Shown in pieces: positions 78 through 18,915 of a DNA stretch of 64,000 bases (positions are counted from its first letter, which is position 1; the number at the start of each line of letters is the position of its first letter). The DNA is from Candidatus Multivorans sp. (lineage in GTDB: Bacteria; Acidobacteriota; Thermoanaerobaculia; Multivoradales; Multivoraceae). The stretch lies in the NCBI GenBank assembly GCA_965219675.1, contig OZ244786.1, positions 1,741,914 to 1,805,913 of the forward strand. The letters are read 5' to 3'. Below the pieces are notes generated by a model, which ran no database searches, was not told the origin of the DNA, and saw only the letters and a program-made list of their open reading frames with translations. A program made the position numbers and the translations under genes.

Positions 78-1577
78 ATGGAGGCTCTTTCACGCTGTGT
101 CGTGCGTCTCGATTCCCACGAAGTGGAGGAAGTGCTGGAACTTGCAAAGCGCCTCTACGGTGACGCTCGAGTGACGGCCGATCTGAGCTTCTGGGATGCC
201 CTGCGGAATCTCCTCCAGAGATCGTGGGAGGCTCTGCCTCGTACAACCCAGGAGCGACACGTACTCGATCTGCTAGGGCTACCTATCGTCGGGCTCGACG
301 ACTTCTCGGTGGGCCGGCCAGTTGCCAAGTTCCGGGAACCTGCCTGGATACTGGAGCGGCCCTCGGACGATAGGCGATGTCCTGCTCCCGAGCGCTCCGA
401 AGAGAATGCGCAACAGTGGCGAGCAGTAGTAGACCTTCTGATCCGAGCCTTGGAGGCCGGCGGCGAGGCCCGGGAACGAGCCTCGGGACGACTTTCGGTG
501 ATGGCGTCATGGAAGCGGTTCACAGTCGCAGAAGAGATTGGGCTAGCGGCCGCATTGTGGGGGTCGAGTTGGCAGCAGACTTCCATGCTCCCGGAGAACA
601 CGAAGCTCCGGCCGTGGGTGTTCGCCAAGCTGCCTGAGCCCAAGCCGGGTGTCGCGCTGGAGCGGCTTCGTGCCTCATGGGGCGACCGGCTCGACTGGAG
701 CCAGGTGGGGCAGGAGGCCCACGAGAAGCTGCTCGCGAATGCAGGAGATGCCCTCGCTGCGCTTCGGCAGCGCGGTGTTCGACTCGCGCTCACGAGCGAC
801 GAAGTGGAAGTCTTGCGTATGGCCGTGGAGCGCTGGGCAGAGTCGGATCTGCATCCGATCCTGCCCTGGGAAGCGTCTGAGAAGGCCCGCCCGCGAGCCG
901 AGGCACTGTACGGTGTAGCGACGTTGCTGCTCAAGTTTGAGGTGTCGCCGGTCGCCGCTCGGGCTTTGGGGCAGCGCGTGCGACAGGAACGCGACGCAGA
1001 GACTCCAGCCTACCAACTGACGCCCGGGATTCTGCGCTCGGATGGTGCGCAGCTTGATGCGCTCGCCTCGCTGCTCCGGACCGGGCTCGCCAGCACGGTC
1101 AGAGCTGCGCTTGACAGTGCCGCCAGTGGTCTGTTCCTCTGGCTTCGGGAAGCGAGGCGATCTGAGCCATTTGTCCCGGCGGTCCCAGAGGAGGTGCTTG
1201 CCGAGATTGGCGTCATTCTCGCCAATCGAAGGTGGCCTTCTATCTCTAGTGCTCTGCAAATCGCTGCCTGGGTCTACGGGGACGGGAGTGCCGAGCAACG
1301 CGCTGTTCTAAGGGCGCCCCTGTTGGAGAGCCTCGGGCAGTTCATCGAAGAGCTCGTGTACGAGGAAGACTTCGACCAGCACCCTTTCTTCAAGCGACCG
1401 TGGGTCGATCACGAGGAGGTCGATGTGCCGCTGCTTCGCTGGCGCTGCGCCAAGCTGGCGATGGCGATGGAGGCCGCTGGTCTGGGGGAGGAGCCAGTCG
1501 TAGCGAGGTGGATTAGAGAGGCGGAGAGGGATCCATTACCTGAGATGCGGTACATCGCGGAGGGATGGGAGGGCTAG
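78..1577 (+). CDS. Hypothetical protein, predicted all-alpha-helical and about 500 aa. The reading frame stays open to position 1, so the gene may start upstream of the window.
   Basis: 499-aa ORF with no recognisable catalytic motifs. There is no in-frame stop between nt 3 and the first ATG at 78. It is convergent with the TIR gene. Confidence 0.5.
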   Translation: MEALSRCVVRLDSHEVEEVLELAKRLYGDARVTADLSFWDALRNLLQRSWEALPRTTQERHVLDLLGLPIVGLDDFSVGRPVAKFREPAWILERPSDDRRCPAPERSEENAQQWRAVVDLLIRALEAGGEARERASGRLSVMASWKRFTVAEEIGLAAALWGSSWQQTSMLPENTKLRPWVFAKLPEPKPGVALERLRASWGDRLDWSQVGQEAHEKLLANAGDALAALRQRGVRLALTSDEVEVLRMAVERWAESDLHPILPWEASEKARPRAEALYGVATLLLKFEVSPVAARALGQRVRQERDAETPAYQLTPGILRSDGAQLDALASLLRTGLASTVRAALDSAASGLFLWLREARRSEPFVPAVPEEVLAEIGVILANRRWPSISSALQIAAWVYGDGSAEQRAVLRAPLLESLGQFIEELVYEEDFDQHPFFKRPWVDHEEVDVPLLRWRCAKLAMAMEAAGLGEEPVVARWIREAERDPLPEMRYIAEGWEG

Positions 1578-2971: not shown

Positions 2972-5236
2972 GTGGAGTTCCGTATCGCCGACACGTTCAC
3001 CGCCAGCCTCGCTCGCCTGCGGGCGGACGAGCAGAAGGCCGTCAAGACGACGGCGTTCGACCTGCAGGTGAATCCGGCGCGGCCGGGGCATCGCCTGCAT
3101 CGGGTCGAGTCGGCGCGGGACAGGAAGTTCTGGTCGGTGCGGGCGGGCCGGGACCTGCGGATCATCGTCCATCGGACGGCGGCGGACTTCCTGCTCTGCT
3201 ATGTGGATCATCACGACCGGGCGTACCGCTGGGCAGAGCGGCGACGCCTGGAGCGGCATCCGCGCACGGGCGCGGCGCAGTTGGTGGAGATTCGGGAGGT
3301 CGTTCGGGAAGTCACTCTAGAGGTAGAGGTGCCGTTCCCCGTGCCGTCGCAGCCGGAGGCGACGGCCCTCGAAGACGCGGTAGAGGCGTCGCCGGCGCCT
3401 GTGTCTGCGCCCGTCGAGGTGCCTTCCGGGGGTCCTGCTGCGTCTGCTGCCGCAGCGCCGCCGGCCGAACCGGCGAAGCTGGCCGGGCCGCCTCTGTTCG
3501 CCAACCGGACGGACGAGGAGTTGTCGAGCTACGGTGTGCCGGCCGACTGGATCGGCGAGGTGCGGACGGCCACGGAGGAGTCGCTGCTCGAGACGGCGGA
3601 GCACCTGCCGGCGGAAGCCGCCGAGGCGCTCTTGGAACTGGCTAAGGGGGGCACGCCGGCGATTCCGCCGCCATTGCCTCCGGCCGCGGACCCATTCGAT
3701 CACCCCGACGCCGGGCGGCGGTTCCGGACGATGGCCGACCGCGAGGAACTCGAACGGGCCCTGGACGCGCCGTGGGAGAAGTGGACGGTCTTCCTGCATC
3801 CGACGCAGCGGGAACTGCTCGAGCGGGACTACGGTGGCCCGGCGCGGGTCGCGGGGTCGGCGGGGACCGGCAAGACGATCGTGGCGTTGCACCGGGCGGT
3901 GCATCTTGCGTCGGAGGATCCGGATTCCCGCGTGCTGCTCGCGACGTTCTCGACGCCCCTGGCCAACGCGTTGCAACGGCGATTGAGGCTGCTGCTCGGC
4001 AGTCGACCGCGTCTGGGCGAGCGAATCGAGGTCCACTCGATGGCCGGTCTTGCGGAGCGCCTCTACCGACTCAACCTCGGATCGCTCAGCCAGGCGTCCG
4101 AAGAGCAGCAGCGCGAGTTGCTCCGCAGCGCGGCCGCGAACGTCGCGGACGACGGCTTCTCGCACCGCTTCCTCTGGGCGGAGTGGAGCGGCGTGGTGGA
4201 CGCCTGGCAGCTCGGGAACTGGGAGGAGTACCGGGCCGTGCCGCGTCTCGGTCGTCGGACCCGGCTGGCCGAAGCTCGCCGGGAGGTTCTTTGGAGGATC
4301 TTCGCCAAGGTGCGGGACGAACTGGAGAGACAGGATTTCCTGACGACCGCCGGCATGTTCCGCAGGCTGGAGGACCACTTCAATCACGCTCGGAAACCGC
4401 CCTTCGACTACTGCGTGATCGACGAGGCGCAGGACATCAGCGTCGCCGAGCTGCGGTTCCTGGCGGCGCTCAGCGAGGATCGGCCGAACAGCCTGTTCTT
4501 CGCCGGCGACCTGGGCCAGCGCATCTTCCGCGCGCCGTTCTCGTGGCGGAAGCTGGGCGTCGATGTGCGGGGCAGGTCGCACACGCTGCGGGTCAACTAC
4601 CGCACGTCGCACCAGATTCGCCGGCAGGCGGATCGCCTGCTGCCGGCCAGGATCGCGGACGTCGACGGCATCGAGGAGGAACGGCGGGGCACGGTGTCCG
4701 CGTTCAACGGACCGGCGCCGGAGATTCGGGTTGTCGAGTCCGAGGAAGCGGAGATTGCGGACGTGAGCGAATGGCTTCGCGATCTGCTGCAGGCGGCGGG
4801 AACGTCCTTTTCGGAGGCAAGGCCCGATGACGCCGATGAAGACGCAGGCGGACTGCGCCCTGGAGAGACCGCTGTCTTCGTCCGGTCGTCACGCAAGGTC
4901 GAACGTGCGCTTCGGGCAGTGGCGGCGGTGGGACTTGACGCTGCCCCATTGGACGCGGGCGAGACCACGGGGCCGGGCTTTGTGGGTGAGGCGGTCGTCG
5001 TGGGCACGATGCACCGCGCCAAGGGTCTGGAGTTCCGCGCCGTTGCGGTCATGGCATGCGACGACGAGGTGTTGCCGCTCCAGGCGAGGATCGAGAACGT
5101 TGTGGACGAGGCGGACCTGGAGGACGTCTACAACACGGAACGCCATCTGCTGTACGTGGCTTGCACCCGTGCCCGCGAACATCTCCTGGTAACCGGCGTC
5201 AAACCGGCCTCTGAGTTCTTGGACGACCTGACGTAG
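2972..5236 (+). CDS. Superfamily-1 UvrD/Rep-like DNA helicase with an N-terminal RelE/ParE-like toxin-fold domain and an Ala/Pro-rich linker.
   Basis: GTG start. The N-terminal ~100 aa read ...RKFWSVRAGRDLRIIVHRTAADFLLCYVDHHDRAY, a RelE/ParE-like pattern. Helicase motifs are present: Walker A GSAGTGKT, motif II VIDEAQD, motif IV-like NYRTS and motif VI TMHRAKGLEF. Confidence 0.85.
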   Translation: MEFRIADTFTASLARLRADEQKAVKTTAFDLQVNPARPGHRLHRVESARDRKFWSVRAGRDLRIIVHRTAADFLLCYVDHHDRAYRWAERRRLERHPRTGAAQLVEIREVVREVTLEVEVPFPVPSQPEATALEDAVEASPAPVSAPVEVPSGGPAASAAAAPPAEPAKLAGPPLFANRTDEELSSYGVPADWIGEVRTATEESLLETAEHLPAEAAEALLELAKGGTPAIPPPLPPAADPFDHPDAGRRFRTMADREELERALDAPWEKWTVFLHPTQRELLERDYGGPARVAGSAGTGKTIVALHRAVHLASEDPDSRVLLATFSTPLANALQRRLRLLLGSRPRLGERIEVHSMAGLAERLYRLNLGSLSQASEEQQRELLRSAAANVADDGFSHRFLWAEWSGVVDAWQLGNWEEYRAVPRLGRRTRLAEARREVLWRIFAKVRDELERQDFLTTAGMFRRLEDHFNHARKPPFDYCVIDEAQDISVAELRFLAALSEDRPNSLFFAGDLGQRIFRAPFSWRKLGVDVRGRSHTLRVNYRTSHQIRRQADRLLPARIADVDGIEEERRGTVSAFNGPAPEIRVVESEEAEIADVSEWLRDLLQAAGTSFSEARPDDADEDAGGLRPGETAVFVRSSRKVERALRAVAAVGLDAAPLDAGETTGPGFVGEAVVVGTMHRAKGLEFRAVAVMACDDEVLPLQARIENVVDEADLEDVYNTERHLLYVACTRAREHLLVTGVKPASEFLDDLT

Positions 5237-5265
5237 AGCCACAGCCTGCCGATAGTCTCAGCCGC

Positions 5266-6306
5266 ATGGCAATCACCCGACTCCGGCTGCAGCGCTTTAG
5301 CGCCTTCGACGACTTCGACTTCGAACCCTCACCGGGCATCAACGTCCTGATCGGCGCCAACGGCACGGGCAAGACCCACCTGATGAAGGTCGCCTATGCC
5401 GCGTGCGATGTCAGCAAGACGGGCACCTCATTCGCTGAGAAGCTCATCCGGGTGTTCCTTCCGTCCGGCGGCGCTCTGGGCCGCTTGGTCAAACGGCAGC
5501 AGGGCAGCTCTCGGTGTGGGATCGAGATCCATCGGCGCCGGGGGCGGGGTTCTGCGAAGCTGACGGCGTCCTTCTCGAATCACGCGTCGGTGCCGAAGTC
5601 CGCGACGGTCAGGGGCACCAAGAACTGGTACGGCGCGCCGCTTGAGAGCGTCTTCATTCCCGTCAAGGAGATGCTGGCCAACGCGCCAGGATTCCGCTCT
5701 CTCTACTCCCAGCGAGAAGTTCACTTTGAGGAGGTGTATGCGGACATCCTCGATCGCGCCTACCGGCCGGCGTTGCGGGGCGCGCCCGATCAGTACCGGA
5801 AGCGGCTCATGGAGATCCTGCAGCGCGCGATGGCGGGCACGGTCACCGTGCGCAACGAGGAGTTCTTTCACTACAGCAGGCAGGGCCGTTTGGAGTTCTC
5901 GCTCCTTGCGGAAGGTATGCGGAAGCTGGGGCTGCTCTGGCTGCTGGTTCAGAACGGGACCTTGCTCAAGGGATCGGTGCTCTTCTGGGACGAGCCCGAG
6001 ACGAATCTTCATCCCAAGCTCTTCGGTGGGCTCGCCGACATCTTCGGCCAACTCCAGCAGGCGGGCATCCAGATCTTCCTCGCCACGCACGACTACACGA
6101 TGCTGAAGGAACTCGACCACAGGGTTGCGGGGCGAAGGGAGAGCGAGATCACGTTCCATTCTCTGTACCGCGAATCCGATAGCGGAAGGGTCCTTTGCAA
6201 GGGTTCAAGGAGTTACGCCGCCATTGCTCCGAACACGATCGCGGATGTCTTCTCCGATCTCTACGACAGGGAGGTCGCGCGCAGCCTAAAGGACCTCGGC
6301 CGATGA
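5266..6306 (+). CDS. ABC-type ATPase of the AAA_21/AAA_15, OLD/SMC-like class. It has the ATPase domain only, with no fused nuclease.
   Basis: Walker A LIGANGTGKTHL, Walker B/D-loop LFWDEPETNLHP and H-loop FLATHD. It starts 30 nt after the helicase stop. Confidence 0.8.
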   Translation: MAITRLRLQRFSAFDDFDFEPSPGINVLIGANGTGKTHLMKVAYAACDVSKTGTSFAEKLIRVFLPSGGALGRLVKRQQGSSRCGIEIHRRRGRGSAKLTASFSNHASVPKSATVRGTKNWYGAPLESVFIPVKEMLANAPGFRSLYSQREVHFEEVYADILDRAYRPALRGAPDQYRKRLMEILQRAMAGTVTVRNEEFFHYSRQGRLEFSLLAEGMRKLGLLWLLVQNGTLLKGSVLFWDEPETNLHPKLFGGLADIFGQLQQAGIQIFLATHDYTMLKELDHRVAGRRESEITFHSLYRESDSGRVLCKGSRSYAAIAPNTIADVFSDLYDREVARSLKDLGR

Positions 6307-6716
6307 TCAACCTGCAGGAGGGCGATCTGCGCGTCACGCTTCCAGGGTTGGGACGGGCGAGGAAGTTCGACGACTCGGCGAACCACGGCTTGAGCCACTG
6401 CATGAAGGCCGTCGACTTCGTCGTGGAGTTCGAGCGGAGCCGGCTGTTCCTGGAGATCAAGGATCCGGGGCATCCTCGGGCACGGTCGTCGGACCGGGCC
6501 TCCTTCGTGCAGAGGTTCCAGTCCAGTCGGCTGGACGGCGACCTCGTCCAGAAGTATCGCGACTCGTTTCTCTACGAGTGGGCTTGCGAGAACCTCGAGA
6601 AGCCGATTCACTATTGGGTTCTCGTGGGCATCGACAGCCTCGGCCCGCCCGACCTCCTCGCTAGGACCGACGCGCTCAAGAGGAGGCTGCCGGTCGGGAA
6701 GGCAACGGGGTCGTAG
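6303..6716 (+). CDS. Small hypothetical protein of about 137 aa, probably a partner of the upstream ATPase and possibly a nuclease-like module.
   Basis: ATG at 6303 overlaps the ATPase stop (ATGA), which suggests translational coupling. Sequence features are MINLQEGDL... and VDFVVEFERSRLFLEIKD, a D..E.K arrangement reminiscent of PD-(D/E)xK. The ORF-track start at 6195 has an arginine-rich extension that is probably not real. Confidence 0.5.
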   Translation: MINLQEGDLRVTLPGLGRARKFDDSANHGLSHCMKAVDFVVEFERSRLFLEIKDPGHPRARSSDRASFVQRFQSSRLDGDLVQKYRDSFLYEWACENLEKPIHYWVLVGIDSLGPPDLLARTDALKRRLPVGKATGS

Positions 6717-6945
6717 CTTCGGCCGATCGTGTCGGACTGTCGCGTGTTCACACCGGGAAGCTGGAACCGAACGCTTCCTGACGGCTACACGGTCACTCGG
6801 GTCTCGGTCTAGGCAGGCGGACCTCGGTGGGCCGAGCGGCGGGGCGTGGAGCGGCATCCGCGGACCGGGGTCGGACCGACGTCGGAGTTTCTGGACCACC
6901 TGGCGTGAGGTGCGCGGAAGGCTCCGGTTGTAGGCTGTCGCGGTC

Positions 6946-8061
6946 ATGTCGGCGATCAGCAACCTCACGATCGAGGGGTTCAAGAGCTTCCGGCGCCTGG
7001 AGCGGCTGGAACTTGGTCCGCTGAACCTTCTGATCGGCGCCAACGGTTCGGGCAAGTCGAACCTCCTCGCGGCCTTCGACCTGCTCGCGAGGGCGTGCAG
7101 CGCTCAGCAGCTCTCGGTCTATGTGGGGAAGGCGGCCGGCGCCGACCGCCTGCTGCACTACGGCCCCAAGATGACGCAGAGCATCCGCTTCCAAGTCGGT
7201 TTTGAGGACGGGCTGGCTGGTTTCACTCTCCTCCTGCGGCACGCTGCCGAGAACCGTCTCTTCTCGAGTTTGAGTATCGAGGGAGGCGAGTTGCCGAGAG
7301 ACTTCGTCGACCAACTTGAGGTGGAGGCCGGCGTTGCCCCGCTCAGTGAGTTTCTCGACCTGAGGCTGGCGGGCTGGCAGGCGTATCACTTCGCCGACAC
7401 GGGTCGGGCTTCGCCCATTAAGACGACGGCGAACCTCAACGACAACCGGCGCCTGCGGCCCGACGGCGCCAATCTCGCCGCGTTCCTGCACCTGCTGCAG
7501 GTGAGGCACAGGATCGCCTATGGCCAGATCCGCCGGACGGTCCAGTTGGCGGCGCCCTTCTTCGATGACTTCGTTCTCGCGCCGCTGGCCCTCAATCCGG
7601 AGACCATCCAACTCGAGTGGCGGCACGTCCGCTCCGACGCCCACTTTGGCGCGTCCTCGTTGTCGGACGGAACCTTGCGGTTCATGGCGCTCGCGACACT
7701 GCTTCTTCAGCCAGCCCAACTCCGGCCCAAGCTGATCCTGCTCGACGAGCCGGAACTTGGCCTGCATCCGTATGCGGTCACCCTCCTCGCAGCCATGCTC
7801 AGAGAGGCGTCGGTGGAGTCGCAGCTCGTTGTGGCGACTCAGTCGCCATTGCTTCTCGACCATTTCGAGCCGGAAGAGGTGCTGGTGACGGACCGCCAAG
7901 ACGGCGCCACGACCGTCCGAAGGCTGTGCAGCGAGAGTCTGAAGGTGTGGTTGGACGAGTACAGCCTGGGTGAACTCTGGGAGAAGAACGAGTTCGGCGG
8001 CCGGCCCGTTCCCGAAACTTCCGGCGAAGGTGCACAGGCCCGGCTCACCGCGAGCGTTTGA
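6946..8061 (+). CDS. Second ABC-type ATPase of the AAA_21 class, a paralogous fold to the 5266 gene.
   Basis: Walker A LLIGANGSGKSNLL, signature-like SDGTLRFMALATLL, Walker B LILLDEPELGLHP and VVATQSP. The 371-aa ORF is separated from upstream genes by 230 bp. Confidence 0.8.
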   Translation: MSAISNLTIEGFKSFRRLERLELGPLNLLIGANGSGKSNLLAAFDLLARACSAQQLSVYVGKAAGADRLLHYGPKMTQSIRFQVGFEDGLAGFTLLLRHAAENRLFSSLSIEGGELPRDFVDQLEVEAGVAPLSEFLDLRLAGWQAYHFADTGRASPIKTTANLNDNRRLRPDGANLAAFLHLLQVRHRIAYGQIRRTVQLAAPFFDDFVLAPLALNPETIQLEWRHVRSDAHFGASSLSDGTLRFMALATLLLQPAQLRPKLILLDEPELGLHPYAVTLLAAMLREASVESQLVVATQSPLLLDHFEPEEVLVTDRQDGATTVRRLCSESLKVWLDEYSLGELWEKNEFGGRPVPETSGEGAQARLTASV

Positions 8062-8172
8062 ACGGGTCGGGTCGGGACCGCGGAGAACCGCGTCTGGCAT
8101 AAGCTCCCCGCCGCCCCGCGGCCGGAGGAGCGGACGTCACTCCTGTTCCGGTCTGACCTGAGGAGACCCTTC

Positions 8173-15151: not shown

Positions 15152-16501
15152 ATGAGTGAACGCACCGCCACGCTGGCGGAGCCGGCAACCGGCCTGCTCG
15201 ATCTCGAAGCGACCGACATCGGGTCGGTCTTCGTGTCGAACTATCCGCCGTACTCGGCCTGGAACGAGGCTTCGGTGAACGAGGCGGCCGCGGCGCTCGA
15301 CCGGGAGCCCGTCCCCGGCACCTCGCTCGGCCTCTACATCCATATCCCGTTCTGCCGAAAGCGCTGCAAGTTCTGCTACTTCCGGGTCTACATCGACAAG
15401 AACCACGAGCAGATCGGGCGTTACCTGGACGCCCTCGGCGTGGAGTTCGAGCGCTATGCGGACCAGCGGTCGATCAGGGGCCGGAAGCTCGACTTCGTCT
15501 ACTTCGGCGGCGGTACTCCCTCCTACATCGCGGCCAAGCAACTGATTCCCCTGGCAGAGCGGCTGCAGAGCGTGATGCCGTGGGACAGCGCCGAAGAGGT
15601 GGCGTTCGAGTGTGAGCCGGGGACGCTGACCCAGTCCAAGCTGGAGGCGATCCGGAGCATCGGTGTGACCCGTCTCAGCCTCGGGGTGGAGAACTTCGAC
15701 GACAGGATTCTGGAGGAGAACGGCCGCGCCCACGTGTCGAAGGAGATCTACCGGGTGCGCGACTGGATCCGCGCCCAGGGGTTCCGGCAACTGAACGTCG
15801 ACCTGATCGCCGGCATGGTCGGCGAGACCTGGGAAAGCTGGAAGCGAACCGTCGACCTGACGATCGAGTACGACCCGGACTCGATCACGCTCTACCAGAT
15901 GGAGCTGCCGTTCAACACGGTGTACTCGAAGGCCAAACTGCGCGGCGATGCCGACGCGCCGGCCTTTGCCGACTGGCGTACGAAGCGGGAATGGCACGCC
16001 TACGCCTTCGAGCGGTTCGAGCGCGCCGGTTTCGAGCGCTGGAGCGCCTACACGATGATGCGGCGTGACCGGGGCTGCAAGTTCGTCTACGCCCGGGAAG
16101 TCTGGAGCGGCGCCGACATGATCCCGATCGGGGTCTCATCGTTCGGTCACATGGGCGGCGTCCATCTGCAGAACCACGACCGCTGGGACGACTACCTGGC
16201 GGCGATCGAGGGCGGCGGTCTGGCGACCCGAAGAGCGCTCGCCACCACTTCCCGCGAGCGCCTGACCCGCGAGCTCATCCTGCAGTTGAAGCGGGGCTGG
16301 CTGGAGCGCGGCGCCTTCGAGCGGAAGTTCGGCGTCGACGTGGTGGAGGACTACGCCGAGGCCTTCCGCAGCCTGACCGACCAGGGGCTGGCAACGGTCG
16401 GGCCGGAACGCGTCGAACTCAGCGAGGGAGGACTCCTGCGCGTCGACCAGCTCCTGCCGCGGTTCTACGACGAGCAGTACCGGGGCGCGCGCTACACCTG
16501 A
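15152..16501 (+). CDS. Radical SAM protein of the HemN/HemW/HutW (coproporphyrinogen-III oxidase-like) family.
   Basis: CxxxCxxC cluster motif in LYIHIPFCRKRCKFCYF. HemN-like length of 449 aa. SNYPPYSAW near the N-terminus. Confidence 0.85.
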   Translation: MSERTATLAEPATGLLDLEATDIGSVFVSNYPPYSAWNEASVNEAAAALDREPVPGTSLGLYIHIPFCRKRCKFCYFRVYIDKNHEQIGRYLDALGVEFERYADQRSIRGRKLDFVYFGGGTPSYIAAKQLIPLAERLQSVMPWDSAEEVAFECEPGTLTQSKLEAIRSIGVTRLSLGVENFDDRILEENGRAHVSKEIYRVRDWIRAQGFRQLNVDLIAGMVGETWESWKRTVDLTIEYDPDSITLYQMELPFNTVYSKAKLRGDADAPAFADWRTKREWHAYAFERFERAGFERWSAYTMMRRDRGCKFVYAREVWSGADMIPIGVSSFGHMGGVHLQNHDRWDDYLAAIEGGGLATRRALATTSRERLTRELILQLKRGWLERGAFERKFGVDVVEDYAEAFRSLTDQGLATVGPERVELSEGGLLRVDQLLPRFYDEQYRGARYT

Positions 16502-16521
16502 GGTCCTGGAAACCCGGGGTC

Positions 16522-18915
16522 CTAGAAGTCGATCCCGAACTGGACGCCGACCTCTGCCGGCGGCGCCCAGACCGCGAGCGACCCGGTGTAGTTCACGAAG
16601 AACTGGCTGAGCCGGTACTCCTCGCCGCCGAGGTTGCGGCCGTAGGCGGCCAGGAAGAGGCGTCCCTGCGCCGAAGTCCAGCGCAACTGGGCGTGGAGCA
16701 GGCCGTAGGAGGGTTGCACGAAGCGCTCGAAGGCGTCGAAGGCCACGTCGTCGGTGTACTGGTACTCGCCGCGCGCGATCAGCGAACCGCTACTGCCCAG
16801 GTCGAACGTGTAGCTCAACGCCGTGCTGGCGGAGAAATCGGGCGCCCGGGGCAGTCCGTTGCCGGAGAGGTCGGTGGGCGGAATCGGGAGAGCGCCGCCG
16901 CCCCCCTGAAGCACCTGGGCCGGATCGATCAGACCAGCGGCGAGCAGTTGCTCCACGAACTGCGCCTGCAGCACGGGATCGAGTGACGTGAAGCTCACGA
17001 ACTCGTCGTCCAGGAGTTCGAGCGACAGGTCGAAGGTGAACTGGCGGTTGGGCCTGGCCGAGAGCTCGAAATCGAGACCGCGAATGCGGGCATTCGCCGC
17101 GTTCTCGACGATGGAGCGATCCGGGTAGAGCACCGCCACCTGCAGGTCGTCGTAGTCGTAGTGGAAGGCGGACGCGTTGATTCGCACCTTGCGGTCGGCG
17201 AGGGACGACTTGACGCCGATCTCGTAACTGGTCACGGTCTCTTCATCGAAGGCCGGCTGCAGTGAAAGGGAGTTGTAGCCGCCGCTCTTGTAGCCGGCGG
17301 TTACCGCGCCGTAGAGCATCACGTTGTCGCTCGGTCGAACCTCGAGGCCCAGCTTGGGGGTCAGCGCGCTCCAGCTGTCGCTCTGGGTCTGGCGCTCCGG
17401 CATGAAGGTCGCGAAGTTCAGCGAAGCCTGGTCCTGCTCCTTCTCGTCGGCCGTGTAGCGGGCGCCGGTGGTCAGCGTCACCCGGTCACTCAGCGTCCAG
17501 TCGACCTGACCGTACGCGGCGTAGAGCGAGGCGTCGAGGCTCGTCTCGAACGGAAGCGGAGTCGCGACTCCCGGCACGGGAAGGCCGATGAACGGCGCGA
17601 TGGCGTTGTAGTACTGCGGCCCGCACAGGAACGGGGGCGCCAGAAAACCAAGGGAGCAGTAGGTCGTCGGGTCGAACAGGAACGTCTGCGGACTGTTCGC
17701 GAACAGCCAGACGCTGAGCAGGGCGAGGTCGGTCACGTTGTTGACCTGCATCCCGCTCTCCTCGTTGAAGGCGTAGGCCCCGGCCACCCAGTTGGTGCGC
17801 TCGCTGCCGCCGTGGAGTTGGAACTCCTGCGACCACCACTCGGAATCGAACGTGCCCCTGTTGGTGATCAGGGCGTTCGGGGAGCCGTCGATGTCCGTGT
17901 CGCGCATCGAGTCGAACGCGCGCGAACTGCTGATCGAAGTGAAGCTCGTGCCGCCACCCATCGCCTTGTTCACGGTCAGCGAGAAGCCGGTCTCCTCGTA
18001 CCGGGACAGCGGCGTGGTGTCGGTCGAGATGCGGTGGACATCGTCCGGATCGGAGTAGCCGTAGAACCGGTTCAGGGTCCCCACCGTGCTGTAGGGCGAC
18101 ACGTCGAAAGGCTTGAAGGGGAAGTTCGCGTGGGCGTCGTCGTCCGTGCTGTCGGCGCGGATCGTGAAGGTCAGAGAGTCGGAGGGCAGGAAGGTGAGCG
18201 AGCCCCGGAGCGTGACGCCGTCGAAGTTGTCCGCGCTGGCGCCCAGGAAGTCGTTGTAGGTGGGGTCCTCGACCTGGGCCGTGGCGCCGGTCAACCGGGC
18301 CCAGACCTTGCTCGACACGGGACCCGTCAGGGTCAGACCGTAGCGGCGTCCCTCGGCCGGCTCGCTCGAGTCGAACTCGGAGACGGACGTGAAGAGGCGG
18401 CCATGGAACTCGCTTTCCGGCGCCCGCGTGATCACGTTGACCGCTCCGGCCGTCGAGTTCCGGCCCCAGAGCGTGCCCTGGGGGCCGCGCAGGACCTCGA
18501 TGCGCTCCAGGTCGAGGAAGGGGTTCACGGCCGCCTGCGGACGCGGCATGTAGACCCCGTCCACGTAGTAGCCGACCGTCGGCTCGGTGCCGATGCCGAG
18601 CGTGCTCGACCCGACGCCGCGGATATAGATGGCGACTTCGCCCGTGGTGGGGCTCTGGCCCGAGATGACCACGCCGGGCGAGGCCTCGGCCAGCGCCTGT
18701 ACGTCGCCTATCGCCTGCTGCTCGAGCTCTTCGCCCGAACGGGTGACGATCGAGATCGGCACGTCCTGAATGGCCTCCTCGACGCGTTGGGCGGTCACGG
18801 TGATTTCCTCGGTGACTGTCGAGTCCGGCTCATCCGGTTCCTGCCCGATCGCGGCGACGGCGACGAGAGGCAACAGGAGGCAAGCGACCAACGGAGCGGC
18901 GGAAATTGAGCGCAT
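16522..18915 (-). CDS. TonB-dependent outer-membrane receptor.
   Basis: Plug-domain motif RVEVLRGPQGTLWGRNSTAGAVNVITR and a C-terminal terminal-Phe barrel ending ...GVQFGIDF. The start is probably the internal Met giving signal peptide MRSISAAPLVACLLLPLVAVAA. The track ORF extends to 18975. My nucleotide count and the track disagree by 1 nt here. Confidence 0.85.
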   Translation of the reverse strand: MRSISAAPLVACLLLPLVAVAAIGQEPDEPDSTVTEEITVTAQRVEEAIQDVPISIVTRSGEELEQQAIGDVQALAEASPGVVISGQSPTTGEVAIYIRGVGSSTLGIGTEPTVGYYVDGVYMPRPQAAVNPFLDLERIEVLRGPQGTLWGRNSTAGAVNVITRAPESEFHGRLFTSVSEFDSSEPAEGRRYGLTLTGPVSSKVWARLTGATAQVEDPTYNDFLGASADNFDGVTLRGSLTFLPSDSLTFTIRADSTDDDAHANFPFKPFDVSPYSTVGTLNRFYGYSDPDDVHRISTDTTPLSRYEETGFSLTVNKAMGGGTSFTSISSSRAFDSMRDTDIDGSPNALITNRGTFDSEWWSQEFQLHGGSERTNWVAGAYAFNEESGMQVNNVTDLALLSVWLFANSPQTFLFDPTTYCSLGFLAPPFLCGPQYYNAIAPFIGLPVPGVATPLPFETSLDASLYAAYGQVDWTLSDRVTLTTGARYTADEKEQDQASLNFATFMPERQTQSDSWSALTPKLGLEVRPSDNVMLYGAVTAGYKSGGYNSLSLQPAFDEETVTSYEIGVKSSLADRKVRINASAFHYDYDDLQVAVLYPDRSIVENAANARIRGLDFELSARPNRQFTFDLSLELLDDEFVSFTSLDPVLQAQFVEQLLAAGLIDPAQVLQGGGGALPIPPTDLSGNGLPRAPDFSASTALSYTFDLGSSGSLIARGEYQYTDDVAFDAFERFVQPSYGLLHAQLRWTSAQGRLFLAAYGRNLGGEEYRLSQFFVNYTGSLAVWAPPAEVGVQFGIDF

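Follow-up and report, generated by a model that had tools for sequence, protein, structure and literature searches.

Which system is encoded by the two overlapping genes at positions 5266-6716 of a 64,000-nucleotide stretch of Candidatus Multivorans sp. DNA (contig OZ244786.1, hereafter the window), and why is the second of them so short? The original prediction saw an ABC ATPase translationally coupled to a miniaturized nuclease partner of 137 amino acids (aa), of either the TOPRIM or the PD-(D/E)xK type. It proposed a split OLD/GajA- or AriAB-like pair, unusual in being placed downstream of a helicase. Judging from sequence comparisons, the pair is with high confidence a divergent but unambiguous member of HEC-02, a catalogued and experimentally tested anti-phage system, and its nuclease gene appears to have been cut by a nonsense codon. 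The pair is already known and is not a new split OLD-, Gabija-, or PARIS-like system. This identification matters little beyond annotation: the flagged pair is a catalogued, experimentally supported system, its fold assignment is corrected to PD-(D/E)xK, and its odd small size is explained by a nonsense mutation. The features of the pair are as follows.

5266-6306 (+): HEC-02A, a 346-aa ABC ATPase, apparently intact (Pfam, PADLOC, and motif set)
5353-5376 (+): Walker A of HEC-02A, G30-T37
5989-5994 (+): Walker B of HEC-02A, D242-E243
6088-6090 (+): H-loop of HEC-02A, H275
6303-6716 (+): HEC-02B, a predicted PD-(D/E)xK (NERD-like) nuclease, truncated to 137 aa (PADLOC)
6414-6416, 6453-6455, and 6459-6461 (+): codons of the HEC-02B catalytic motif, D38, E51, and K53, respectively

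HEC-02, for Hma-embedded candidate 02, consists of an ABC ATPase and a NERD-like PD-(D/E)xK protein with a (D/E/Q)xK signature. It lowers phage plaquing in E. coli, and both genes are required (Payne et al., bioRxiv 10.1101/2024.01.29.577857). The system is catalogued in PADLOC-DB v2. In the literature, we found it by name in the preprint of Payne et al. only, and we found no mechanistic follow-up. The pair that was tested originates from Dickeya dianthicola NCPPB 3534 (WP_024108366.1 and WP_024108365.1), with an A protein of 342 aa and a B protein of 169 aa. In PADLOC-DB, the window ATPase matches the HEC-02A profile PDLC04213 with an E value of 1e-116, its residues 1-341 aligning to profile positions 1-334 of 337. 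The 137-aa open reading frame (ORF) matches the HEC-02B profile PDLC04229 (E = 1.9e-43). Nine of the ten PADLOC matches of the partner are HEC-02B models, and the tenth is a weak HEC-02A match. The tested Dickeya HEC-02A is 36% identical to the window ATPase (E = 2e-58). A profile of 120 homologues of the window HEC-02B aligns to the tested Dickeya HEC-02B with a probability of 95.9% and an E value of 6e-9 (hhalign), the D and ExK positions of the two falling in register.

Like the tested system, the window encodes two adjacent genes on the same strand, an ABC ATPase of about 345 aa upstream of a protein that is about 169 aa long when whole. The latter shows the D...(D/E/Q)xK phosphodiesterase signature (D38, E51, and K53) on a predicted PD-(D/E)xK, NERD-like fold. 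The arrangement that the original prediction had found unusual is therefore that of a catalogued and tested system. Two differences are apparent. The window subfamily (PDLC04213/PDLC04229) is divergent and the tested member lies outside it, and the window HEC-02B is interrupted by a nonsense codon at position 138, so that HEC-02A is whole whereas HEC-02B lacks 32 of 169 residues.

Pfam assigns the HEC-02A product to AAA_21 (3.9e-22), with weaker matches to AAA_15, AAA_23, and SMC_N. It carries every motif conserved among 76 homologues: GxNGTGKTH (Walker A), IPVKEML, LLAEGxRKL (signature-like), LFWDEPE (Walker B), and TH (H-loop). In PADLOC, its match to HEC-02A is better by about 90 orders of magnitude than those to OLD-family profiles, and in structure it resembles Smc, Rad50, and PtuA more closely than AriA or OLD. 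This ATPase appears to belong to the same radiation as the OLD, Gabija, and PARIS ATPases without being specifically one of them. Two minus-strand ORFs extending across the pair (5428-6159 and 6261-7055) lack a Pfam match and are regarded as shadow ORFs of high-GC DNA. Residues 139-152 of HEC-02A (NAPGFRSLYSQREV; window 5680-5721) rank with the best-conserved regions of the ATPase family. They also form the sole internal stretch with a modelled pLDDT (predicted score in the local distance difference test) below 50. This segment is a candidate flexible loop that may bind the nuclease or the trigger. Together with the conserved C-terminus of HEC-02B, it provides a pointer for the study of the HEC-02 mechanism.

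The coupling of the two genes was confirmed in the sequence: the TGA stop of the ATPase (6304-6306) overlaps the ATG of the partner (6303-6305) in an ATGA at 6303-6306. We rejected a longer form of the partner starting at TTG 6195, which the original prediction had named as a start that would overturn its reading. The homologues begin at the Met aligned with ATG 6303, and the HEC-02B profile begins only at residue 39 of the longer ORF. The product begins MINLQEGDLRVTL, and its residues 37-54 read VDFVVEFERSRLFLEIKD (VD...EIK). We searched for homologues using the 137-aa ORF joined to the in-frame codons that follow it, which returned 705 proteins, and the best 120 were aligned. D38, E51, and K53 are invariant in these 120 sequences; the acidic residues are conserved in homologues, as the proposal of a nuclease had called for.

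An AlphaFold2 model was made on P0001, an intact homologue 91% identical to the window protein, with the 120 sequences. It is confident (pLDDT 91.3; predicted template modelling score, pTM, 0.89). The N-terminus forms a three-stranded meander (2-6, 9-13, and 18-21) followed by a less confident conserved loop. The core comprises a strand at 39-42 preceded by D38 and a strand at 47-53 bearing E51 and K53. Helices 62-73 and 78-94, a strand at 102-108, and a helix at 115-128 come next, and the C-terminus is made of a strand (145-149), a helix (151-157), and a last strand (163-166). The model thus displays an alpha/beta core of the restriction-endonuclease type, in which one strand carries D and the following strand (D/E)xK. 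This supports the assignment of HEC-02B to the PD-(D/E)xK nuclease fold, with a predicted activity. Of the two nuclease types first considered, PD-(D/E)xK is retained, and TOPRIM, to which no similarity was found, is not. The ATPase coupled to a small partner with a nuclease fold stands as first described, on the AAA_21 match, the ATGA overlap, and the predicted fold.

The D...ExK signature on such a core is shared with NERD (PF08378) and other PD-(D/E)xK nucleases. In contrast to the latter, HEC-02B has its three-stranded beta-meander before the core, where a first helix is usual. Foldseek comparison of the HEC-02B model with the PDB gave no significant match (best E value, 0.077), and the top, non-significant matches are PD-(D/E)xK enzymes, e.g., Hjc and XisH. 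A search of all PDB chains with the sequence profile of the B family returned nothing even at E values up to 10, and a Pfam scan of the 120 homologues gave chance-level matches only. The link to NERD is provided solely by a published structural superposition, the HEC-02B protein being superposed on a NERD model in figure S6C-D of Payne et al.

Four residues of HEC-02B, H28, H32, and C33 (window 6384-6404) and C146 (6738-6740), could together constitute a putative metal (Zn) site. The HGLSHC motif, located in the low-confidence loop before the catalytic Asp, is nearly invariant in the HEC-02B subfamily of the window, and Cys146 is conserved in a C-terminal strand removed by the TAG codon. The tested Dickeya protein has neither the HGLSHC residues nor Cys146.

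The small size of the partner, described as a miniaturization in the original prediction, is accounted for by two features.

6714-6716 (+): premature stop TAG at codon 138, in place of a conserved Trp codon TGG, by a single G-to-A change at 6715
6717-6812 (+): stranded C-terminal end of the HEC-02B coding sequence, 31 codons (LRPIVSDCRVFTPGSWNRTLPDGYTVTRVSV) and then the ancestral TAG stop at 6810-6812, in the same frame as 6303-6713

The best 120 of the 705 homologues are nearly all 165-180 aa long, with 92-100% coverage of the joined query in most cases. At least 90% of the sequences have Trp at position 138. In DNA alignments with the closest loci, codon 138 reads TGG in L001, L002, L003, L084, and L085. 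Joining the codons that follow the TAG extends the coverage of the HEC-02B profile from positions 2-136 to positions 2-168 of 171. It also raises the score from 146 to 166 bits (E from 1.9e-43 to 1.2e-49), and six further HEC-02B subfamily models gain score as well. Among 83 loci, the B gene has a median length of 169 codons and none is below 160; the B genes of L084 and L085, two loci added after this analysis, likewise show no natural truncation. By sequence comparison, the 137-aa size is thus attributed to a nonsense truncation, TGG to TAG by a single G-to-A transition, and not to natural miniaturization.

The stranded segment holds the conserved residues V143, C146, V148, W154, N155, and R166. 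Because it shows only three codon differences with L001 (two synonymous changes and D160E) and no indels, the mutation is recent or the base is an error. The nonsense codon removes the last 32 residues, i.e., strand 145-149, helix 151-157, and strand 163-166. Among the lost positions, W138, C146, V148, N150, W154, N155, and R166 are at least 90% conserved or invariant. Their loss probably destroys the folding or the function of HEC-02B. HEC-02 in the window genome is, therefore, most likely non-functional and a recent pseudogene, unless the base results from an assembly or sequencing error.

How the pair is organized elsewhere was analyzed by scanning one genome per species, which gave 80 loci encoding HEC-02B homologues; 83 loci entered the locus analysis. 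These loci are found in Acidobacteriota, Pseudomonadota, Chloroflexota, Nitrospirota, Desulfobacterota-like, Latescibacterota, Omnitrophota, and other lineages. A HEC-02A homologue lies directly upstream of HEC-02B on the same strand in all 83 loci, and in 59 of them the two genes overlap by 4 nt (ATGA in 47, GTGA in 12). Given this regularity, the ATGA overlap in the window is not due to chance. The edge of the unit is marked by one further feature.

5247-5265 (+): conserved leader moving with HEC-02AB, left edge of the mobile unit (collinearity with L002 and L003)

Window 5247-6806 is collinear with L002 8945-10504 and L003 2233-3792, with 82% identity. In L002 and L003, the gene preceding the cassette encodes a type III methyltransferase (PADLOC MTase_III, E = 0), and in the window, L001, and L084 it encodes a UvrD-like helicase. 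Based on this collinearity, we propose window 5247-6806 as the mobile unit. HEC-02 is a self-contained, horizontally mobile, and translationally coupled two-gene cassette. The strictly two-gene character of this unit across many phyla, and its mobility between close relatives, are a modest added value of the analysis. Flanking direct or inverted repeats, sought as a sign of a mobile element, were short and at chance level. A scan for promoters and terminators gave nothing above shuffled expectation; scanned as a whole, the window yielded neither Rfam matches nor tRNAs. The G + C fraction of the cassette (~0.63-0.64) is slightly below that of its flanks (~0.67-0.72), a difference that is not diagnostic.

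The surroundings of the cassette are those of a defence island, with three features flanking the pair.

2972-5236 (+): 754-aa UvrD-like superfamily 1 (SF1) helicase with an extra N-terminal region of ~270 aa, context and not part of the module (Pfam)
6816-6909 (+): relic of a second UvrD-like helicase gene (alignments to the window helicase and to L002)
6946-8061 (+): HEC-01A, a 371-aa ABC ATPase, intact, its partner HEC-01B absent (PADLOC HEC-01A, E = 2.2e-119)

The helicase matches Pfam UvrD-helicase (1.3e-15) and UvrD_C (1.7e-14), and its best PADLOC match, GajB, reaches 2.6e-22 only. Its homologues are found within 8 kb of HEC-02B in only 5 of the 83 loci, L001-L005; in L084, a UvrD gene is directly upstream of HEC-02A. 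We therefore rejected the helicase as a third component. Because the cassette moves, and follows a methyltransferase gene in L002 and L003, the position downstream of a helicase, noted as remarkable in the original prediction, is a local accident. More generally, recurrence of the helicase, methyltransferase, TIR, and HEC-01 genes next to the cassette is limited to the closest relatives (L001-L005 and L084), which are metagenome-assembled genomes of Candidatus Multivorans / Thermoanaerobaculia. The relatives carry the island at the same site of the chromosome, upstream of the genes for VOC, epimerase, and PQQ-repeat proteins, and its content is shuffled. Upstream genes in the relatives encode the type III methyltransferase and a ResIII protein, which matches REase_III only weakly (E = 2e-5). 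Unlike the Hma-embedded HEC-02, the window cassette sits between the UvrD-like helicase gene and a partnerless HEC-01 ATPase gene, and no Hma match is among the PADLOC matches listed for the window neighbours or the upstream genes of the relatives.

An apparent duplication of the 3' end of the helicase gene proved to be the relic of the second one. Positions 6816-6868 align to window 3220-3270 and L002 13523-13566, and positions 6864-6909 to window 5192-5238 and L002 15440-15538, with the HEC-01A leader next, as in L002. The junction, an ACCGG microhomology, connects about 50 nt of the 5' region with the final 12 codons and the stop. This implies that the second helicase gene suffered an internal deletion of ~2 kb.

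In L002, the HEC-01A ATPase gene is followed by a gene for a 233-aa DUF4276 protein (HEC-01B, E = 5e-67). There, the ~960 bp at 16608-17564 correspond to 154 bp in the window (8007-8160), which points to a deletion of HEC-01B. In L001, HEC-02A is frameshifted, the helicase is split into pieces of 153 and 633 aa, and HEC-01A is almost wholly deleted (L001 6624-10004). L084 retains only fragments of HEC-01A (200 aa) and of the DUF4276 protein (136 aa), upstream of the helicase gene (4409-5713). The defence island is variable and decaying, independently so in the relatives, and the window offers a snapshot of its gene-by-gene erosion in an uncultured Acidobacteriota lineage.

The L002 region 15547-17318, in which a UvrD helicase gene is followed by HEC-01A and HEC-01B, resembles a split Gabija (GajB, with GajA as separate ATPase and TOPRIM proteins). 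HEC-01AB alone gave no defence in the assays of Payne et al.

Several points weigh against a decayed HEC-02. The tested Dickeya pair is distant, with 36% identity for A and, in the N-terminal 96 columns only, ~26% for B, and phage protection was assayed for this representative only, in E. coli (Payne et al.). Pfam NERD is unmatched by the window HEC-02B and is matched by 1 of the 120 homologues, with an E value of 0.28. The proposed inactivity is deduced from the conservation of the missing C-terminus, and the 137-aa product keeps the catalytic motif as well as core strands one to four. No decay is seen in the 31 stranded codons, which fits a very recent mutation or a base-calling error. Finally, the substrate and trigger of HEC-02 and the control of the nuclease by the ATPase are proposed by analogy with other systems.

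An intact HEC-02 is a serious if unlikely contender. The TAG at 6714-6716 would be an error made in sequencing or assembly, or a minority allele picked up in a metagenome assembly, and the 169-aa nuclease would be made. The undamaged state of the codons following the TAG (two synonymous changes and a conservative one relative to L001), the fully intact ATPase, and the origin of the close relatives, which are all metagenome-assembled genomes as the window probably is, are in favor of such an error. However, the sequence as given has an A at 6715, and the helicase relic (6816-6909) and the loss of HEC-01B are large deletions, impossible as base-call errors. In L001, HEC-02A is frameshifted and the helicase split. 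As the island genes of the relatives are also disrupted, gene loss is the local norm. We rate a genuine mutation as likelier than an error because the nonsense change fits this pattern of erosion.

It is improbable that the 137-aa HEC-02B is still a working nuclease, whether alone, with a separate C-terminal peptide, or by read-through of the stop. The product keeps D38...E51-x-K53, the N-terminal sheet, strands 39-42, 47-53, and 102-108, and the helices between 62 and 94 and at 115-128, and minimal PD-(D/E)xK cores of ~100-130 aa exist, e.g., Hjc and XisH. Yet the lost segment, two strands and a helix of a single globular domain, contains the seven residues listed above (W138 to R166), each invariant or conserved to at least 90%. 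It is also conserved across HEC-02B subfamilies, six further models gaining score with it. No naturally truncated homologue was observed in the 83 loci, L084, or L085. Concerning read-through, TAG is an ordinary stop in the window, e.g., that of the helicase gene (5234-5236).

A more elaborate version, which we regard as quite improbable, combines such a working 137-aa nuclease with the neighbouring genes. HEC-02AB would have inserted into a split Gabija-like set of UvrD, HEC-01A, and HEC-01B, replacing its lost effector, and the nuclease would possibly be shared by HEC-02A and HEC-01A. If true, this would represent natural effector swapping and miniaturization inside an embedded defence island. 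The Gabija-like trio of the island, UvrD with HEC-01A and HEC-01B (DUF4276), is whole in L002 and degraded in the window.

There is very little to recommend a role in housekeeping DNA repair, with a RecF/SbcC/Rad50-like ATPase and a nuclease, or in a toxin-antitoxin system, instead of immunity. NCBIfam gives weak RecF and Rad50 N-terminal matches, and the Pfam name of AAA_21 ("AbiEii toxin, Type IV TA", TA standing for toxin-antitoxin) might suggest the latter. However, the NCBIfam matches are all far under their cut-offs (e.g., 29.7 bits against 172 for RecF). The cassette is patchy across unrelated phyla and shifts position between close relatives, and its neighbours are TIR, type III restriction-modification, HEC-01, and UvrD-like genes. 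Moreover, a homologous pair protects against phages experimentally (Payne et al.).

The split OLD/GajA- or AriAB-like pair, with a miniaturized TOPRIM partner whose EG.D motif would supply the catalytic glutamate, is refuted at the level of fold and family and keeps next to no credit: in the partner, E6 and G7 show at least 90% conservation but lie at the end of the N-terminal beta-hairpin and not in a Rossmann-like TOPRIM core, neither the window protein nor its 120 homologues match TOPRIM, DUF4276, DUF4435, or RloB in Pfam at E values up to 0.1-1, the ten PADLOC matches are all HEC-02 models with no AriB, GajA, or Old among them, and the ATPase fits HEC-02A far better than OLD profiles and is structurally nearer to Smc, Rad50, and PtuA. 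A TOPRIM, DUF4276, or DUF4435 partner was accordingly rejected by Pfam, PADLOC, and structure. The ATPase of the locus that is normally paired with a TOPRIM (DUF4276) protein is the product of the next gene, HEC-01A (6946-8061), and not HEC-02A.

HEC-02, to which we assign the pair, differs from these systems in several respects. PARIS associates the ABC ATPase AriA with the TOPRIM/DUF4435 protein AriB (PMC11464382), whereas the HEC-02 effector has a predicted PD-(D/E)xK fold and HEC-02A is smaller (346 aa versus ~55 kDa), besides its greater structural proximity to Smc, Rad50, and PtuA. The hexameric scaffold, tRNA cleavage, and Ocr-type trigger are features known from PARIS. Gabija (the GajA ATPase-TOPRIM protein and the GajB UvrD helicase) and class 1/2 OLD share with HEC-02 an ABC ATPase of the same superfamily, and, as in Gabija, a UvrD-like helicase gene adjoins the pair in the window. 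In contrast, the HEC-02 pair has no TOPRIM domain, fused or separate, and its association with a helicase is confined to the closest relatives. In Septu and the retron type I-A effector, the ABC ATPase PtuA is accompanied by the HNH protein PtuB and not by a PD-(D/E)xK protein; the similarity of the window ATPase to PtuA profiles is weak and N-terminal only (PADLOC, 9e-9; NCBIfam, 22 bits against a cut-off of 500).

How an intact HEC-02 would act can be proposed by analogy with PARIS and other systems based on AAA15/21 ABC ATPases. In PARIS, a scaffold of the AriA ABC ATPase sequesters the AriB nuclease, which is released upon ATP-dependent sensing of a phage protein, and ABC ATPases of the AAA15/21 type, which occur together with many effector domains, probably serve as infection sensors (PMC11464382). 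Payne et al. propose the same sensor and effector roles for HEC-02. HEC-02A would be an ATP-dependent sensor or regulator keeping the nuclease in check. On detection of an infection cue, it would license or release HEC-02B, which would then cut nucleic acid, most likely DNA, and stop the phage or the infected cell.

Two further observations were made upstream of the cassette. The helicase gene starts with a region of ~270 codons (2972-3780), residues 37-81 of which give a sub-threshold match to HigB/RelE-like toxins (E = 0.023) and are followed by a proline/alanine-rich linker; this region may be a toxin-like or sensor domain fused to the SF1 helicase. Further upstream, a 330-aa TIR-domain protein is encoded on the minus strand (1823-2815; PDC-S66, 6e-53; ThsB, 3.5e-29; Pfam TIR_2, 8.5e-19). 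Its gene is convergent with that of a 499-aa protein (78-1577, plus strand), which is absent from L001 and whose weak PADLOC match to Dsr2 (E = 6e-6) falls in the non-catalytic part, at profile positions 744-1127 of 1222. These two genes could encode a TIR effector and a separate Dsr2-like sensor.

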